Shown here in pieces: positions 9,001-45,000 of a stretch of DNA of 64,000 bases. The stretch is from Fidelibacterota bacterium. Its GTDB lineage: Bacteria; Fidelibacterota; Marinisomatia; Marinisomatales; TCS56. The first letter of the stretch is position 1, and every line of letters starts with the position of its first letter. The stretch spans positions 23,609 to 87,608 of the forward strand of contig JBDRBK010000070.1 in assembly GCA_043822705.1 (NCBI GenBank). Reading direction: 5' to 3'. Made by a program: the position numbers.

Positions 9001-12000
9001 GAGTTGCGGTGGTCGGTTCGCGTTCCACTACGGCGTATGGCCGATCCACCGCCAAAGCGATTACCCTGGAACTGGTAAATTCGGGACTGACGACCGTCAG
9101 TGGACTGGCACGGGGCATCGATTCTGTCGTCCATCTGGAAACGGTTAATTCCGGTGGCCGTACGATCGCTGTACTGGGTAATGGAATCGATCTGATCTAT
9201 CCGGCGGAAAACCATAAACTGGCGGAAAAAATAATGCGGAATGGTACGATTATCAGCGAATTTCCGCCGGGAACAAAACCGGATGCCGGCAATTTCCCCC
9301 AGCGCAACCGGATTATCAGCGGGCTAAGCCACGCCACGGTCGTAGTCGAGGCCGGCGACCGTAGCGGCGCGATGTTGACCGCCCTGAATGCTGTCGACCA
9401 GAACCGCGATGTTTTTGCCGTGCCAGGCCGTATGACCGATAAACAGAGTGTTGGTTGCCTGCGGTTAATCAGTCATGGCGCAGTGCCGGTAGTGCGGCCG
9501 GACATTATCACCGAAATGATAGAGAAACGGTTATTCCATCCCCGGGTTGCCCGGCAGCAGGTCATCAATCTGGAGTTGACCGAAAGCGAGCGGCTGGTTG
9601 TTGACCAACTCAGTCACGACCCGGTGCATATTGACGATCTGGCCCAACGGACGGGCCTGGAAATTACCCGGCTGCTGACGGTATTGCTGGAACTGGAATT
9701 GAAAAATGCCGTAATCCAGATGAGCGGGAAGCAATTTGTCCTGTCCTGACGAAATTTCGGATTGTTAAACCAGACGACCGGCGGTAATTTTGCCAGCCTT
9801 GTTAGTCGAAAAACCATTCGATTAGATTTTTTACAGCATAAACTTGGAGAGGTGGCCGAGCCGGCTGAAGGCGCCCGCCTGCTAAGTGGGTATAGGCAGT
9901 GATCCTGTCTATCCAGGGTTCGAATCCCTGCCTCTCCGCAACTGGCGTCGTACCCAAGTGGTCCAAGGGAGCGGTCTGCAAAACCGCGATTCATCGGTTC
10001 GAATCCGATCGACGCCTCGGAATCAATTACGAATTGCCAATTATCAATTCTCTTTTTCTTAATTCATAATTCTCGATTGATCATTGATTCGCCCGGGTGG
10101 TGGAATTGGTAGACACAAGGGACTTAAAATCCCTCGGTAGCGATACCGTGCCGGTTCAAGTCCGGCCCCGGGTACAGCGGCCCATCTGTTGCAGATGGGT
10201 TTTTTATTTATGGGAACATCGTCACCGACTGGTGATGCAACCACGGATTGTACCAAAGGAGTCTCAACGGGACACTGATTTCACTGATAATAATCATCAC
10301 CTATAGGCTAAACCTGTTGCCAGTACGCCGTTGACTGCCGTAAAATCCGCCATGTCAACCGGAAATGGGAACCGCGCCTGTTGCCTTTTACTGACTGTTG
10401 TTACCGGGAAGGGAAGAGTGTTATTAATTGGAGAATTTTTAATGATGGTAATTTATCCTGGTCAGGGATTCCAGGTAAATAATCGACAATAACGGGTGAT
10501 CGAAAACAGCATGACCAATGAAGAATTGATTAAAAAAGCGGCGTCGGTGGTAAAAACCAGGAAGACCAAAAACGGATTGTTCGGCGACGTGGGCTGTGCC
10601 TTAATCTCCGACAACGGTAAGATTTATGTCGGTATCTGTGCCGATGCTGGTTCCAACGCCATTTGCGCCGAACAGAACGCCATCGGCGCAATGATAACGG
10701 CCGGTGAATACCGGATAAAAAAGATTGTCTCCGTCTGGAAGGACAGCAACAACAATATTTTTGTGATTGCGCCCTGCGGTAATTGCCGTCAGTTTATGCT
10801 GGAAGTGGATGCCGAGAATGCAGCCGCCGAGATTATCCTGGATAATGAAAAAACGGTCTTATTAAAAGAATTGCTGCCCTATTCTGATTGGTGGAAAAAA
10901 CAGGAGTAGGCCTCCGATTTTATCCATCACTCCAACAACTCCAACATTTTATTATTTCCCTTGCCGCCATTCCGCGGACTGCCGTAAAATCAGCCACCCA
11001 GCCGGAAAGGGGAACCGCACCTGCCGCTTTTTACTGTCTGTTGTTAAACGGAGAGTGGAAAGACATTTAGAAATGATTGTATCTCCAACAGCGGGGAACG
11101 CTTCCCCCATATGAATGATTGTTACCCTTAGATGGATTATTCTATCCCCAACCTAGGGCAAAGTCTATCCCTGCTGGACTCTTGTCCGGTCGGCCTGGGG
11201 CGGAACATATTCCTGCCTGTGAAATGCTTTAATAACATGGTGAAACCGATTCTGTGTATTTAATTTGAAAGCTATTCCGAGGATGTACCGGTGCAATAGT
11301 TTTGCGGAATATACTTGTGGGGTTGTAACTAAATTTAGCGACCTGATAAAAAAGTAAAACAATCTTCATGCAGAAGTACATTCATCGCGAGCGTGTAATT
11401 GCGACCTTGAATCACCAGACAGCTGACCGGGTTCCGTTGGACCTGATGGGGAATGCGTCGATGCTGCTGGATGACACCTACATCAGATTACGTGACCGGC
11501 TCGGCCTGACGGAAATTGCTCCGGTCCGATCAGGATCGACCGCCAATTATTATGACGAGCGAATCCTGAAATACCTGGACATCGATTTCCGTCGGCTCTT
11601 TCTGCGGAAAAGTCCTGCCAATCAGGTCACCAGACATTCCGACGGTTCCTTCACCGACATCTGGGGAGTACGCTACCGGCAGATCGGCCCTTTTGTCAAT
11701 GCCATAGATCATCCTTTGGCAGGTGTCACCAGCGTCCGGGACCTTGATAATTATCGCTGGCCTACCGCCACTGATTTGTATACCGCCGATGGAATCGGTG
11801 AATTAGCCCGGAATCTGTATGAACAGACCGGTTATGCCCTGGTCGCCCGAAACCCGCTTTCCGAAGGCTTTCTCGATCGTCCCTGCCATCTGATGGGCAT
11901 GTCGGAATTCATGATTTTTCTGCTCACCGAACCAGAATTGGTAAACGCCATAATTGCCCGGCTCCTGGAACTGTATAAAGGGGTCTACAGCATGTTTCTG

Positions 12001-42000: not shown

Positions 42001-45000
42001 GGGACAGTCATAAATCAGGGGGAATTGTTCATGTTTAAACTGGCGATGATTCAGATGCAGGTGCAGGGAGGGCGGAAGAAGACCAACCTGACCCATGCCC
42101 GTTATTTGATCGATGAGGCAGCCGGCAACGGTGCCCGGCTGATGGTACTGCCGGAAGCATTTGATCTTGGTTGGACCCACCCTGCGGCCCTGCGGGAAGC
42201 CAGCGCTATTCCCGATGGCGACGTCTGCTTGATGCTGGCTGAAGCCGCCCGTGAAAATGAAATTTTCGTCTGTGCCGGTATGGTTGAGCAATCCACCGAT
42301 AAAATTTATAATTCGGCCGTCCTGATCGACCCGACCGGAAAGGTGATCCTTAAACACCGCAAATTGAATGAACTGGCGATCGGTCATAAATATTACAAAC
42401 AGGGTGATCGTTTAAATGTTTGCCACACGGAATTGGGCACACTGGGATTGATGATCTGCGCCGACGGTTTCGCCAAAGACCAGGTCCTCAGTCGGGCCCT
42501 GTGTTATATGGGAGCGGATATTATTCTATCGCCAAGTGCCTGGGCATTGCCTTCCGATCATCAACCCGATGCCGGTCCGTTTCAGTCCTGTGTGAACGAA
42601 TGGCGCCAGGTCTATCAACCGGTGGCACAGGACTATTCGGTTTATATTGTCGGTGTCAGCAATGTCGGTTCGATAGCAGCCGGACCGTGGGCCGGTAAAA
42701 ACTGTATCGGCTGTTCACTGTTGATCGGCCCGGATGGCCGGGAAATGTTGCAGGGACCATATGGACCACAGGCCGAGATGATCATGTATGCCGACATCGA
42801 ACCGCTGCCCAGACCGGCGCGTGGTACCGACTGGGTGGATCGACATAAACATTAATTCGATCCATCTGCTCAAACAGGAATTTTCAGAGGCGATTAAATC
42901 ACATTACAGGGGTTTTTAGATATATCTGTTGAATATTCTATAATATTAACACTTTATTGGTATTATTTACTGATTGAGTGCTAAATTCCTTTGGTATCGT
43001 AACGGGAGTGCTGGTCTATTCGGTAAAGTATTGTAAATCCGGAATTATGTGCTGAAAGCGAACATAATATTGAGAAGTTAGGTAACATAAAAAACCATAT
43101 TTAAAGCTAAGTGTCTGAAATAGATCATCGATAATTACTGGTACGATACTTGCGGATTGAATCGCTCTGAAATGCTGGTGTTATGCCTCTCCGCCTAACC
43201 TGCCAGTAAAAAACCAAATCGTGTGAATGAGAATTGACTGTAACAAGGAATAGATGGTGCTGCCGGAAGCGATAATCCTGCTGTCGATGCTTACCGTATT
43301 CGCGGTCAGCGTTTTTGTGCTGAAATTGCCAGCGGGCGTATCGTTGATGGCCGCAGCTCTGATCGGCGCCTTGGCCGGAGGCGAAGGGATACCGATCCGG
43401 CATCTGGTCGAAGGCAGCTTTGGTTTCCTCGAAGCAATTCTTATAATCGCCACTGCCATGATTTTTATGAAGGTTGCCGAGGCATCCGGTGTGCTGTCCA
43501 CGATCAGTTACTGGATGATTAAATCGTTCTATAAATCACCGTCCTTACTTTTCGTTGTAATCGCGCTTTTTATCATGTTTCCCGGTATGCTGACCGGTTT
43601 ATCGTCGGCCTGTCTGTTGACTACCGGAGCGTTGATTGTGCCCGCCCTGTTGGCGATGGGCATGCCCAAACTGGCGGCCGGATCGTTTGTCGCCCTAATG
43701 GCAGTTCTTGGTGAAATCGCACCGCCGATCTGTATTCCGGTAATGATAATCGGTGGTGGCGTCGATATGCCTTATATCGGCTTTACCAGACCGTTATTTC
43801 TGGCCTCGTTTCCATTGGCGGTGGTTCTGGCATTGTATTACCGCTATCGTTATCTGAATCATTTTGAAATTCAGGCCGTGCTTGCCAAATTGCCCAAACC
43901 AGTCTACCATAAACACGGTTTTAAATTATTCCTGCCGATCATTTTCGTAATCGCCTATCTGATCGTTGAGAACCTCTTCCCGGAAAAAGTTCTTCATATC
44001 GGCGTTCCATTGATATTCATGATCGGCGCCTTGATCGGACTGCTGACCGGTGAAAAATTCGCCGTGCCGACGGTTCTGCGCAGCGCAATTAGAAATGCCA
44101 TGCCGGTGATGGCGATTCTCGTCGGTGTGGGTATGTTTCTGCAGATATTGACCCTGACCGGTGCACGCGGCTGGGTTGCCGTGAATGCATTGAAATTGCC
44201 GGAAGAAATTAAATATCTGACTGCAGGACTGATGCCGTTTTTCGGCTCGGCCTATGCCGCCGCTTCGGTGATCGGCGTCCCGTTGGTGTATGTCTTCATC
44301 GGCAAGAACGAGATTGTTCTCACGGCCGGGCTGGCCCTGATGGCCGCCCTGGGTGATCTGATGCCGCCGCCATCGATGCTGTTCGCCTATGCCTCACAGA
44401 TGGTGGATGTGAAAAACCATTATCGAATCCTGAAAGCCAGTCTGATCCCGATAATATTATGCCTGGTCGTGGGATTGATCATCATTATTTACGCCGAAAA
44501 AATCGCCAGAATCATATTGTGAGTAAAATTGATGCTTTATTGGATATATATCCTGATCACCATTCTAATCGTCGCAATTACTTTGATCGAGCTGTTCAGT
44601 GAAAAAAAATGGCAAAATCAGATTGCCTTTGCCATGATACTGATCCCGTTGTTATTACGAATATTCGGTATCAAGTGAAATAAGCATGAATAAGAATTCA
44701 CTGATTTCAGCGACTTTGATTGTCCTGGTTGTAGTTCTGATCGATATTGTCGCCGCTGTTGATTTCTTGAAAATGCATCACCCCGATCCGATTTATCCCA
44801 GTGCTGGTCTGACTGAAATCAAGACGCTGGGTGATTATAATTCCAATCTGATAAACAGTGCCGGCGATACGGAAATATATCTATTTGACAGCGGCCGACC
44901 GGGCGCCAGTCTCCTATTGTTGGGCGGTACCCACCCGAACGAACCCGGTTCATTCATTACGGCAGTGACCATTATCGAAAACGTCCGGCCGGTGGCGGGC

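Follow-up and report, generated by a model that had tools for sequence, protein, structure and literature searches.

The window analysed here, a stretch of 64,000 nucleotides from a Fidelibacterota genome, carries genes for two URO-D-fold methyltransferase-like proteins (A and B) and for a corrinoid protein, which lie at the two ends of a 31-kb gene run best explained as a locus for the use of a glycan rich in alpha-mannose. Judging from the sequences, the chances are about even that A and B move methyl groups from O-methylated mannose-type sugars to the corrinoid protein and that distant modules then pass them to homocysteine or folate. If true, this would be an oxygen-independent, B12-dependent demethylation of sugars, a reaction not yet described; no O2-independent, B12-dependent sugar demethylase was found in the literature searched.

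Gene content of the 31-kb run

The whole run lies on the + strand, with intergenic gaps of 120 bp or less from 12849 to 42855 in an ORF reading of the window, and all genes named by the initial annotation are present on that strand. The features are as follows.

11368..12495, +, URO-D-fold methyltransferase-like protein A, 375 aa (Pfam URO-D 5.9e-13)
12610..12623, no strand, candidate operator of the GntR/UTRA regulator, palindrome TATGTTTAAACATA (conserved position)
12849..13586, +, GntR/UTRA (HutC-type) regulator (Pfam UTRA 2e-26, GntR 1.7e-16)
13492..19539, +, outer-membrane trio (Pfam/NCBIfam), consisting of the next three
13492..16647, +, TonB-dependent receptor (Pfam)
16644..18500, +, unknown protein, 618 aa (weak T9SS-tail match)
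18511..19539, +, FadL-like porin (Pfam)
19549..22708, +, sugar ABC importer: solute-binding protein and two permeases (Pfam)
22708..26160, +, GH38 alpha-mannosidase-like protein, 1150 aa (Glyco_hydro_38N 6.1e-20)
26209..27066, +, DUF4961 protein, exported, T9SS sorting tail (Pfam)
27187..28302, +, DUF4185 protein, no signal peptide (DUF4185 1.1e-25)
28326..30404, +, 692-aa protein, probably a six-hairpin (MGH1-like) glycoside hydrolase (ESM Atlas neighbours)
30401..31705, +, esterase (PF00756), lipoprotein-like N-terminus (Pfam; N-terminus by eye)
31719..32627, +, ROK-family sugar kinase (ROK 1e-43)
32647..34500, +, class I mannose-6-phosphate isomerase (PMI)-like long protein, 617 aa (B. subtilis PMI 1qwr, 3e-10)
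34513..35625, +, MalK ATPase, apart from the rest of the ABC importer (Pfam)
35638..37617, +, DUF4961 + DUF4185 protein, exported, Ig-like/T9SS-type C-terminus (Pfam, NCBIfam)
37643..40291, +, GH38 alpha-mannosidase-like protein, 882 aa, no signal peptide (Glyco_hydro_38N 2.2e-14)
40313..41350, +, URO-D-fold methyltransferase-like protein B, 345 aa (Pfam URO-D 1.2e-30)
41381..42013, +, corrinoid (B12-carrier) protein, 210 aa (Pfam B12-binding_2 + B12-binding)
42025..42855, +, nitrilase-superfamily amidase (CN_hydrolase), closing the run (Pfam)

The N-terminus of the 1150-aa GH38 protein is signal-peptide-like when read by eye, and 21 bp separate the end of the 882-aa GH38 gene from the start of B, which itself adjoins the carrier gene. 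The DUF4185 family includes GH183 endo-D-arabinofuranases (PMC10115798). The 692-aa protein has no match in Pfam or NCBIfam; its ESM Atlas neighbours carry PF22422 (MGH1-like_GH), which is a lead only. The 617-aa ORF, which turned out to be the "mannose-6-P isomerase" of the initial annotation, has no Pfam match and was identified from 1qwr and from its homologues, named class I PMI in their sources. Orthologues of the GntR/UTRA regulator occur in L128 (72% identity) and L016 (56%), and the TATGT-N4-ACATA palindrome recurs in both loci: in L128 it precedes the GntR orthologue, and in L016 it separates GntR from the B orthologue. In the window it is the sole match at one mismatch or fewer, upstream of GntR and not of A; because one match is expected by chance (mean 1.25; 70 of 100 shuffles), its candidacy as an operator is supported by conserved position, not by count.

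Two URO-D-fold families and the corrinoid protein

A and B are two separate, well-conserved families, both with the MtaA fold. Identity within the A family alignment (A2) is 59-69%, and hhalign relates the A family to the B family with a probability of 98.8. The AF2 model of A (pLDDT 85.8) has its best fold match in MtaA (4ay7, E 2.5e-14), and B matches the same structure by profile at 2.3e-13 with the zinc ligands aligned. Where MtaA has the zinc ligands H-x-C...C, A carries H-x-D...C (H267-x-D269...C350-N-H352; no signal peptide), whereas B retains the MtaA-type ligands (H233-x-C235...C320), residues that are invariant in its family. The NCBIfam scores in the initial annotation were reproduced exactly and are, as it had stated, far below the cut-offs (MtaA/CmuA 2.5e-09 for A; PRK06252 1.3e-23, MtaA/CmuA 1.4e-21 and HemE 7.6e-12 for B). 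Neither protein resembles true HemE, since B reaches 44.9 bits against a cut-off of 302.95 and A has no HemE match in NCBIfam.

The third gene, by its motifs, encodes a canonical corrinoid protein: D99-x-H101-x-x-G104 (DxHxxG), S146-x-L and G175-G176 are all present, and these residues are invariant across 50 sequences. It matches MtgC_2 (4.3e-60) and pyl_corrinoid (2.3e-51) in NCBIfam, likewise far below cut-offs, and 1y80 (6.6e-45), MttC and MetH in the PDB. When A and the corrinoid protein were co-folded, the ipSAE was 0.80 (0.79-0.82 in three runs) versus 0.22 for the best of three controls; of 157 solved complexes 116 come up to this mark, as do 2 of 215 mismatched pairs. At least 69% of contacts are common to the runs, the partner pLDDT is 78 or higher, and on the carrier the contacts take in residues 103, 106 and 110, beside His101. 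The predicted complex passes its controls.

An activating enzyme and an acceptor methyltransferase had been reported as missing, which is true of the locus but not of the genome (PF02965, PF02574, MetH, PF00809). Contig C82 holds the third URO-D gene reported earlier together with an MttB-family gene, a PF02965 gene, a corrinoid protein 50% identical to the carrier of the window, and a PF02574 homocysteine S-methyltransferase, which is the neighbouring "MT2" of the initial annotation. The product of this third paralogue (URO-D C) is of the H-x-D class, and by sequence true UroDs match it at least as well as MtaA does. The genome also encodes MetH, two stand-alone PF00809 proteins and two stand-alone PF02574 proteins; neither a RACE/RamA activase nor an MtaB (methanol) homologue was found in it (93%-complete).

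Recurrence and neighbourhoods in other genomes

Linkage of A and B to sugar catabolism is seen under several phylum-level labels. In other lineages, clusters of A, B and the corrinoid protein adjoin genes for GH38 mannosidase, DUF4185, ROK kinase and the long PMI-like protein, the last being the commonest neighbour of A and B (13 loci: L012, L015, L017, L018, L020, L098, L103, L116, L130, L177, L178, L186 and L189). Orthologues of the 882-aa GH38 protein (50-56% identity) lie beside methyl-transfer genes in L011/L177, L012 and L017, and a CN_hydrolase gene is also found near B in L012, L023, L184 and L186. In Chloroflexota, operons with A orthologues contain SDR (14 loci), fucose-isomerase-like (14), Zn-ADH (13), FGGY kinase (12) and sugar ABC genes; because these orthologues, at about 60% identity, sit in fucose-isomerase/FGGY-type and not in mannose operons, the identity of the sugar is uncertain.

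The three genes are adjacent in L016 (GntR, then B, corrinoid, A) and in L011/L177, where one operon comprises DUF4185 genes, B, A, a third URO-D gene, PF02965, corrinoid, PF02574 and GH38 (L011 and L177 being one and the same piece of DNA). In L128 the corrinoid and carbohydrate esterase genes are divergent from A-GntR-TonB, with A and the corrinoid gene as neighbours, and genome G156 repeats the full layout, A being followed after 29 kb by B-corrinoid. These loci, together with the co-fold, bear out the part of the initial annotation that took the triad for one corrinoid set linked to a mannoside locus. B is followed by a PF02965-like gene and a corrinoid gene fragment in L179 and by a homocysteine methyltransferase gene in L182, and A and B adjoin each other in L178 too. 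A and B are no obligate pair: in G157, B stands beside GH38 and PMI genes and no A orthologue is present, and among 151 sampled genomes of the phylum both were found at E<=1e-40 only in that of the window (G000), in agreement with the rarity noted earlier.

Of 53 loci with an A orthologue (827 kb of flanks fetched), 6 have a corrinoid gene in those flanks, as do 3 of 13 close B loci (194 kb), against about 0.5 and 0.1 expected by chance from a rough background of about 2 corrinoid genes per 3 Mb; the flanks of the other 47 and 10 loci contained none, and the 940 kb around 67 more distant B relatives, at 31-50% identity, likewise had no such gene. Eighty metagenome loci yielded one further full corrinoid gene only, at L177. 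Of 25 long relatives of the carrier that were scanned, 9 bear a URO-D domain; the fused proteins in the motif alignment comprise eight of the H-x-D class and three of the H-x-C...C class. One of them, P0461, matches the A profile at 3.5e-28, and its locus (L142) contains Zn-ADH, SDR and sugar-binding protein genes. All 10 checked genomes with A or B but no adjacent carrier gene contain a PF02607 match elsewhere (a small carrier-sized ORF in nine, only a partial 166-aa ORF in G161), a test of low power: PF02607 occurs in 134 of the 151 genomes of the phylum.

Proposed pathway and alternative readings

Beyond the observed gene content, motifs, fold, recurrent linkage and co-fold score, we infer the methyl transfer itself, its direction and its acceptor, and also, from the gene neighbourhood, that the substrate is a methyl ether of a mannose-type sugar. 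Extracellular trimming of the glycan would fall to the esterase, the GH38 protein with the signal and the DUF4961/DUF4185 proteins with T9SS tails, and the TonB trio and the ABC system would take up the fragments; the cytoplasmic GH38, the DUF4185 protein and the six-hairpin hydrolase would then liberate monosaccharides, to be channelled into glycolysis by the ROK kinase and the PMI-like protein. As corrinoid-dependent methyltransferases of the UroD superfamily, A and B would transfer the ether-bound methyl group of the sugar to the Co(I) corrinoid protein, most likely both on the donor side (MT-I) and perhaps with different positions or different sugars as targets. Modules encoded elsewhere in the genome could then unload the methyl-Co(III) carrier: a stand-alone homocysteine S-methyltransferase (giving methionine), MetH or a stand-alone pterin-binding protein (giving methyl-folate). 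Repair of the oxidised carrier would be the task of the PF02965 reactivation-domain protein of the MetH type rather than of an ATP-dependent RACE/RamA enzyme. That homocysteine is the acceptor and that A and B are both donor-side is suggested by the L011/L177 operon, with A, B and a third paralogue beside separate PF02574 and PF02965 genes. UroD-superfamily MT-I enzymes known so far act on aryl methyl ethers or halomethanes, and cleavage of an alkyl methyl ether is chemically harder, its nearest precedent being methanol activation by MtaB, which has a different fold. A fitting substrate exists, since Chlorella N-glycans are described as oligomannosidic and as ending in 3-O-methyl and 3,6-di-O-methyl mannose (PMC6344472) and mannose O-methylation is reported in several microalgae (PMC12507850).

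The initial annotation had instead assigned the roles MT-I, carrier and MT-II. On this reading A would cleave the ether of a methylated sugar and B would hand the methyl group on to folate or to a thiol, be it homocysteine or another. We regard this assignment as unlikely. In MtaA the His-Cys-Cys zinc site activates the thiol acceptor. B keeps this site, its gene adjoins that of the carrier, the A and B genes lie side by side in L011/L177 and L178, and clusters that encode several MtaA-like proteins but no folate methyltransferase are on record (PMC10418091). Yet L011/L177 already has its dedicated PF02574 homocysteine methyltransferase, B occurs without A in G157 and, like A, it tracks sugar genes (PMI-like, GH38, DUF4185) and not carrier genes. 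An H-x-C...C site alone is no proof of MT-II, because TIGR01463, with PRK06252 the best-scoring family for B, bears the name MtaA/CmuA, and CmuA works as an MT-I plus carrier (PMC13222342).

Donor-side action of A and B on sugar ethers has also to be weighed against a corrinoid set with a non-sugar donor, such as methanol, methylamines or quaternary amines, methylthio or methylseleno compounds, or methoxylated aromatics bound to the glycan. The esterase could release methanol, the 50%-identical carrier on C82 accompanies an MttB-type system, type-1 mlp clusters, in which a carrier accompanies several MtaA-like proteins and there is no folate methyltransferase, are proposed to serve methyl-sulfur or methyl-selenium compounds (PMC10418091), and the known MT-I enzymes of the superfamily use aryl ethers and halomethanes (PMC13222342). 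We nevertheless hold such a donor to be quite unlikely: MtaB and the RACE activase, a component of mlp clusters, were not found in the genome, MttB is absent from the locus, and across phyla A and B adjoin PMI-like, ROK, GH38, FGGY-kinase and sugar-isomerase genes even where there is no esterase.

It is improbable that A, B or both are UroD-fold sugar enzymes other than methyltransferases (decarboxylase, isomerase or similar) beside a coincidental or B12-sensing corrinoid protein, a reading favoured by the scores far under the methyltransferase cut-offs, by the lack of a nearby carrier gene in most relatives of A and B (including all 67 distant B relatives), by the fit of URO-D C to true UroDs and by carrier relatives fused to AraC or IclR DNA-binding domains, but opposed by the PF02607 matches in 10 of 10 genomes, by the way A, B and the carrier cluster with modules of MetH type in L011/L177, L016, L179 and L182, by the A/carrier co-fold, and by the fusion of members of both motif classes to corrinoid domains.

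Gene run, protein families and possible corrinoid dependence

A run of + strand genes, preceded by a DprA gene, three tRNAs and a deaminase gene, extends from 11368 to 42855 of the window (G000:C70:23609-87608; the host genome comprises 3.34 Mb in 218 contigs and is 93% complete), with intergenic gaps of at most 120 bp from 12849 on. The gene list of the initial annotation and its family scores were reproduced by Pfam, NCBIfam and PDB sequence search. The run contains a glycan locus (hereafter the mannoside locus: GH38 α-mannosidases, DUF4185 and DUF4961 proteins, an esterase, a ROK kinase, a PMI-like gene, a TonB trio and an ABC importer) together with a proposed methyl-transfer set of two methyltransferase-like proteins (A and B) and one corrinoid protein (the carrier):

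11368-12495, + strand: A, URO-D-fold methyltransferase-like protein, 375 aa
32647-34500, + strand: PMI-like, class I mannose-6-phosphate-isomerase-like protein, 617 aa
40313-41350, + strand: B, second URO-D-fold methyltransferase-like protein, 345 aa
41381-42013, + strand: carrier, corrinoid protein, 210 aa
42025-42855, + strand: nitrilase-superfamily amidase

As the best reading, for and against which we see about equal chances, A, B and the carrier would be a corrinoid-dependent methyl-sugar demethylase set inside the mannoside locus.

Signal- or lipoprotein-like N-termini were recognized by eye in the 1150-aa GH38, the esterase, the DUF4961 proteins, the solute-binding protein and the outer-membrane proteins, and no such signal was seen by the same inspection in the 882-aa GH38, the 371-aa DUF4185 protein, a 692-aa protein, ROK, PMI-like, A, B and the carrier; these N-termini suggest that the proteins of the mannoside locus fall into two compartments. 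The 692-aa protein is probably a six-hairpin (MGH1-like) glycosidase, and the PMI-like family is found fused to ROK kinases in Bacteroidota (both are leads from the ESM Atlas only). The uptake unit consists of a TonB receptor, an unknown 618-aa protein and a FadL-like porin, not of a SusC/SusD pair, and a trio of this type is present twice more on contig C82 of the same genome. Three proteins (16644-18500, 26209-27066 and 35638-37617) have a C-terminal sorting signal of the T9SS type or a sequence that weakly matches one. The amidase gene closes the operon, and the B orthologues in four of the comparison loci (L012, L023, L184 and L186) also have an amidase nearby; were the substrate an N-glycan, the enzyme might, as a speculation, cleave an amide bond, for example that between GlcNAc and Asn. 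Just upstream of A, three tRNA genes stand in a row (9846-10174) between DprA and a cytidine/dCMP deaminase-like gene, and the A orthologue in L128 is preceded by the same DprA neighbourhood.

B has 1625 database relatives, and an alignment of 30 of these shows no variation at its residues H233, C235 and C320. When the B-family profile was compared with the PDB, MtaA (4ay7) was matched at 2.3e-13, with H233, C235 and C320 aligned to the H-x-C...C segments of MtaA, followed by true UroDs (1e-8 to 1e-3) and by CdmB, the donor-side methyltransferase (MT-I) of a chloromethane system (9rui, 3.6e-05). The A family is distinct from that of B and very conserved (its best 120 matches, from Marinimicrobia, Caldilineae, Anaerolineae, Planctomycetes and Calditrichales, are 59-69% identical). 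Its profile found nothing at E<=1 among PDB sequences and A was placed by fold search alone, the AlphaFold (AF2) model (pLDDT 85.8) having MtaA 4ay7 as its best Foldseek match (E 2.5e-14, TM 0.65/0.71), then UroDs. A UroD-type TIM-barrel fold is assigned to both proteins by Pfam URO-D, and to A also by the AF2 model. The profiles of A and B align to each other with a probability of 98.8, which places H267, D269 and C350 of A at the columns of H233, C235 and C320 of B; the predicted zinc-site residues (His-x-Cys...Cys) would thus be complete in B, and A differs in having Asp (D269) for the first Cys.

The MtaA/MtbA/CmuA group (TIGR01463, 4ay7) is the best sequence and fold match of B and A, with scores below the cut-off for both: B reached 77.1 bits and A 36.9 bits against the MtaA/CmuA model TIGR01463 (cut-off 235.4), and B 83.6 bits against PRK06252 (cut-off 244). 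HemE (TIGR01464) was matched by B at 44.9 bits (cut-off 302.95) and not matched by A, and the context of both genes is sugar catabolism, not haem synthesis. Neither protein attains any curated family cut-off, and on sequence grounds we file A and B in the UroD superfamily beside the MtaA/CmuA branch, outside any named family.

The 210-aa protein is, to judge by its motifs (DxHxxG, SxL and GG), a standard corrinoid carrier: D99, H101, G104, S146, G175 and G176 are invariant across 50 sequences, and its PDB matches are 1y80, MttC and MetH. It is 50% identical to a paralogue on C82. Its gene starts 30 bp after B, and carrier genes adjoin A in three comparison loci (L016, L128 and L011).

Fused proteins and a structural prediction bear on the dependence of A and B on a corrinoid. 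From the relatives of the carrier (150 nearest cluster representatives), 25 long proteins were scanned, and nine of these unite URO-D and B12 domains in one chain (others are fused to MttB, pterin-binding or regulator domains). A motif alignment included eight fused proteins with H-x-D, as in A, the C82 paralogue and the third URO-D paralogue of L011, and three with H-x-C...C, as in B. One H-x-D fusion (P0461) matches the A profile at 3.5e-28, and the neighbours of its homologue in L142 (81% identical) are IclR, Zn-ADH, SDR, a sugar-binding protein and a GntR/FCD regulator. Where the best of three controls gave an ipSAE of 0.22, the co-fold of A with the carrier gave 0.80 (runs 0.80, 0.82 and 0.79), a mark attained by 116 of 157 solved complexes and by 2 of 215 mismatched pairs. 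Contacts agree between the runs to at least 69%, the partner has a pLDDT of 78 or more, and the confident contacts join residues 173-187 and 231-239 of A to residues 53-67, 103, 106 and 110 of the carrier, that is, to the cap helix and the loop beside the cobalt-ligand His101. The model supports binding of the carrier by A, in a test that might also let through a near relative of the true partner.

Recurrence in other genomes and candidate acceptor modules

We fetched the surroundings of B relatives (80 genome loci and 80 metagenome loci), of A orthologues (53 genome loci) and of a URO-D-corrinoid fusion protein (35 loci), and screened them with the proteins of the window and a corrinoid HMM. 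L177 is 100% identical in DNA to L011, and L187 is 99.99% identical to L018; L177 and L187 were therefore left out of the independent counts. Among the informative arrangements is that of L011 (Dehalococcoidia bacterium UBA7891) and of L177, its longer twin from a metagenome, where ABC permeases, ROK, PMI-like, several DUF4185-type genes, B, A, a third URO-D paralogue, PF02965 (reactivation domain), a corrinoid gene, PF02574 (homocysteine S-methyltransferase) and GH38 lie on one strand (the B orthologue is 59% and the A orthologue 60% identical to those of the window, and the GH38 50% to the 882-aa GH38). The part from the last DUF4185 gene to GH38 was confirmed by Pfam in L011, and the permeases, ROK, PMI-like and the other upstream DUF4185-type genes are tblastn matches in L177.

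Several other loci are informative as well. In an Ignavibacteriaceae locus (L016), a TonB receptor, ABC genes and GntR lie on one strand and adjoin B, a corrinoid gene and A. In L128, DprA comes first, and the corrinoid and carbohydrate esterase genes after it diverge from A-GntR-TonB. L012 (genome G156) shows synteny with the right half of the window, and its A orthologue is found 29.7 kb upstream of B, as in the window. B adjoins GH38, MalK, PMI-like, ROK, the esterase and the 692-aa protein in L017 (Ignavibacteriae), and it is accompanied by DUF4185, the 692-aa protein, the esterase, ROK and PMI-like in both L188 and L189; PMI-like, A and B are adjacent in L178. In L182, B is followed at the contig end by a homocysteine methyltransferase gene (PF02574-like), and in L179 by a PF02965-like gene and an 84-residue corrinoid gene fragment (L179:11933-12184 encodes only corrinoid residues 108-191, which is either a truncated carrier gene or an assembly break). 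In the lists of the best 120 matches of A and of B, 15 pairs give an identical value for the longest contig, which suggests that they share contigs, and one pair has consecutive locus tags. In a genome of the same family as that of the window (G011:C38:14805-15738), a 232-aa corrinoid-type ORF is immediately preceded by a B-like URO-D gene in the same orientation; this B-like match covers the C-terminal half (E 1e-70).

Other counts weaken the reading. A full corrinoid gene was found in the fetched flanks of 6 of the 53 A loci and of 3 of the 13 close B loci, and in those of none of the 67 more distant B relatives (31-50% identity). The Chloroflexota orthologues of A are located in monosaccharide operons (SDR in 14 loci, fucose-isomerase-like genes in 14, Zn-ADH in 13, FGGY kinase in 12 and DeoR-type regulators in 8), which firmly tie A to sugars, not to mannose. 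Among 151 genomes of the phylum (at least 80% complete), matches at E<=1e-40 were obtained for A in 10 and for B in 6, and both occur together only in the genome of the window; in G157, B stands beside mannoside genes and A was not found. The carrier family PF02607 is present in all 10 A-positive genomes (mean 3.0 matches, against about 1.6 in the rest of the sample), a comparison of little power because 134 of the 151 genomes have PF02607 anyway. Likewise, ten genomes that carry A or B with no adjacent carrier gene all have PF02607 elsewhere (nine with a small carrier-sized ORF, and the fragmented G161 with a partial ORF only), which only fails to refute the reading because carriers are common in these groups.

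The mannoside locus holds no acceptor enzyme and no activator, and Pfam detected no PF00809 pterin-binding protein between 8655 and 45810. RACE/RamA (PF14574) had no match in the 93%-complete genome (the control, Methanosarcina acetivorans, was matched). Elsewhere the genome encodes MetH, two stand-alone PF00809 pterin-binding proteins, a second stand-alone PF02574 on contig C158, and the following module on C82:

L010:9413-15311: MttB-family gene, PF02965, corrinoid protein, PF02574, AmiA-like amidase, third URO-D paralogue

The initial annotation had placed a third MtaA-like gene between two TonB trios on C82, next to an MttB/corrinoid/methyltransferase set; this is what we find, the methyltransferase being PF02574 and the URO-D paralogue belonging to the H-S-D-G class, with a TonB-receptor trio on each side of the module. 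The same annotation had counted the lack of an activator and of a folate methyltransferase against its proposal, an objection that stands for the locus (and, for RACE, for the genome) but not for the genome as a whole, which contains PF02965, PF00809, PF02574 and MetH. By analogy, the C82 module resembles a betaine-to-methionine 'split MetH' set, and it probably supplies acceptor and repair functions for the carrier of the window. We favour a scheme in which the methyl group would pass from the carrier to homocysteine, giving methionine, and in which repair of the carrier would be SAM-dependent, by a PF02965-type module; a homocysteine acceptor and SAM-dependent repair are favoured because the same modules are located inside the orthologous operon of L011/L177.

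Proposed methyl donor and known systems

Glycans of algae, fungi, bacteria and invertebrates commonly contain O-methylated sugars. To our knowledge, P450 is the only route of sugar demethylation, as it was for the initial annotation, and it needs O2, which leaves a gap for anaerobes that meet methylated sugars. In porphyran degradation, a P450 monooxygenase reportedly demethylates 6-O-methyl-D-galactose, dependent on O2 and with release of formaldehyde; the net outcome equals that proposed here, a sugar freed of its O-methyl group and thereby open to catabolism. No description of corrinoid- or cobalamin-dependent sugar demethylation was found in the full-text literature covered, which includes a minority of the subscription journals.

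The sequence itself names no donor, and that the donor would be a methylated sugar is deduced from the gene context. Three points make the case: in several phyla, both enzyme families are found time and again with genes for sugar processing in the cytoplasm; MtaB has no match in the genome, and an MttB-family gene is absent from the mannoside locus (there is one on C82); and fitting natural substrates exist. The proposal of the initial annotation, an ether-cleaving corrinoid set acting on methylated mannose-type sugars, is partly upheld, in that the corrinoid set recurs with glycan genes; its sugar donor would follow from that context. In Chlorella vulgaris, most oligomannosidic N-glycans carry 3-O-methyl and 3,6-di-O-methyl mannose at their non-reducing ends (PMC6344472), and a review lists O-methylated mannose as well as arabinofuranose and galactofuranose decorations for microalgal N-glycans (PMC12507850). 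It is a speculation that GH38, the DUF4185-family proteins, the esterase, the amidase and the proposed demethylase together would suit such microalgal N-glycans. A link of DUF4185 to methylmannose through the mycobacterial methylmannose-polysaccharide hydrolase MmpH was considered and dropped (MmpH is an (alpha/alpha)6 barrel, and its paper makes no mention of DUF4185).

In its full form, which we put forward tentatively and hold to be somewhat more probably wrong than right, the reading states that A and B would be the first members of a class of O2-independent, cobalamin-dependent carbohydrate O-demethylases, that they would strip the methyl-ether caps from mannose residues in glycans of microalgae or microbes (e.g., the 3-O- and 3,6-di-O-methyl-mannose of algal N-glycans), and that the methyl group would be moved to the shared corrinoid carrier and from there directly to homocysteine. 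If true, alkyl methyl ethers of carbohydrates would be a new substrate class for B12 methyltransferase chemistry, and many 'uroporphyrinogen decarboxylase family' genes in sugar operons would be explained. In anoxic sediments and guts, methyl groups from glycans would enter the synthesis of methionine and SAM, linking glycan degradation there to B12 demand and methionine supply, and the pattern in Chloroflexota, Ignavibacteria, Spirochaetes and others would represent a widespread, so far missing step of anaerobic glycan degradation. The locus is a good test case because it holds the carrier, donor-side candidates and sugar genes together; in the orthologous operon L011/L177, modules for acceptor and repair functions are present as well, and the reading is directly testable with three small soluble proteins.

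The type of system is already known, since the UroD superfamily holds such enzymes both as MT-I (MtvB, OdmB, VdmB and MtoB for aryl ethers; CdmB, CmuA and MecE/C for halomethanes) and as the acceptor-side MT-II (MtaA, MtbA and MtsA), as described in PMC13222342 and PMC10418091. In the aryl O-demethylases MtvABC (Moorella), OdmB/VdmB (Acetobacterium) and MtoABCD (Methermicoccus), a UroD-superfamily MT-I transfers the ether methyl group to a small DxHxxG corrinoid protein, which is unloaded by a second enzyme (PMC13222342 and PMC8630106). A corrinoid protein with DxHxxG, SxL and GG is likewise present here, but the setting is a glycan locus with no pterin-binding MT-II, the genome has no ATP-dependent activator, and the substrate would be an alkyl (sugar) methyl ether (OdmB, VdmB and MtvB were compared by description only). 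Coenzyme M use, as in the group of MtaA, has no sign in the mannoside locus, and the host is a bacterium. CdmBCA (9rui), a chloromethane dehalogenase/methyltransferase, shows that the superfamily diversified to non-aromatic methyl donors (PMC13222342); it too combines a UroD-fold MT-I, a corrinoid protein and an MT-II, and CdmB matches the B profile, but its substrate is a haloalkane that enters by a hydrophobic channel, CdmA binds folate and an ATP-dependent activator is used.

In MtgBCDE, the split methionine synthase or 'split MetH', a small corrinoid hub is common to the donor methyltransferase, the homocysteine-binding PF02574 protein and the reactivation modules, so that one carrier serves donor, folate and homocysteine enzymes (PMC12478193). 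The likeness is the series PF02965-corrinoid-PF02574 on C82 and beside A and B in L011/L177, outside the locus of the window; the difference is that the donor enzyme of MtgBCDE is an MttB-family protein acting on glycine betaine, and here UroD-fold proteins in a sugar locus are proposed. Type 1 mlp clusters, according to a preprint by Kountz and Balskus, comprise several MtaA-like UroD-superfamily proteins and a corrinoid protein, and no folate methyltransferase; they contain a Ram/RACE activase and are found mainly in Firmicutes, and their proposed substrates are methyl-sulfur or methyl-selenide compounds (PMC10418091). In contrast, RACE is lacking here and the genes lie within the mannoside locus (Mlp2 and Mlp3 were compared by description only). 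The novelty would lie in the class of substrate, in the connection to acceptor and repair modules of the MetH type, and in the location within glycan loci.

Possible regulatory sequences and domains

The Rfam families found in the window were the three tRNAs only, with no riboswitch or other family. Promoter and terminator scans of the window returned sites no more frequently than in shuffled sequence, and the terminator scan gave no intergenic terminator within the gene run. Sequencing runs matched to 37643-42855 comprised DNA runs with small word shares and no RNA run. A palindrome, TATGT-N4-ACATA, is present upstream of a GntR/UTRA gene in three genomes (window, L128 and L016):

12610-12623: palindrome TATGT-N4-ACATA, candidate operator

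The copy in L016 is located between GntR and B. A search upstream of A and across the window found the single site at 12610, and one match in the window equals the chance expectation; the palindrome is a candidate operator of the locus regulator because its position is conserved, not because of the number of matches. Among the relatives of the carrier, six proteins (P0434, P0443, P0464, P0508, P0457 and P0506) have close corrinoid-binding domains fused to AraC- or IclR-type DNA-binding domains, and these fusions are possible B12- or methyl-corrinoid-sensing regulators.
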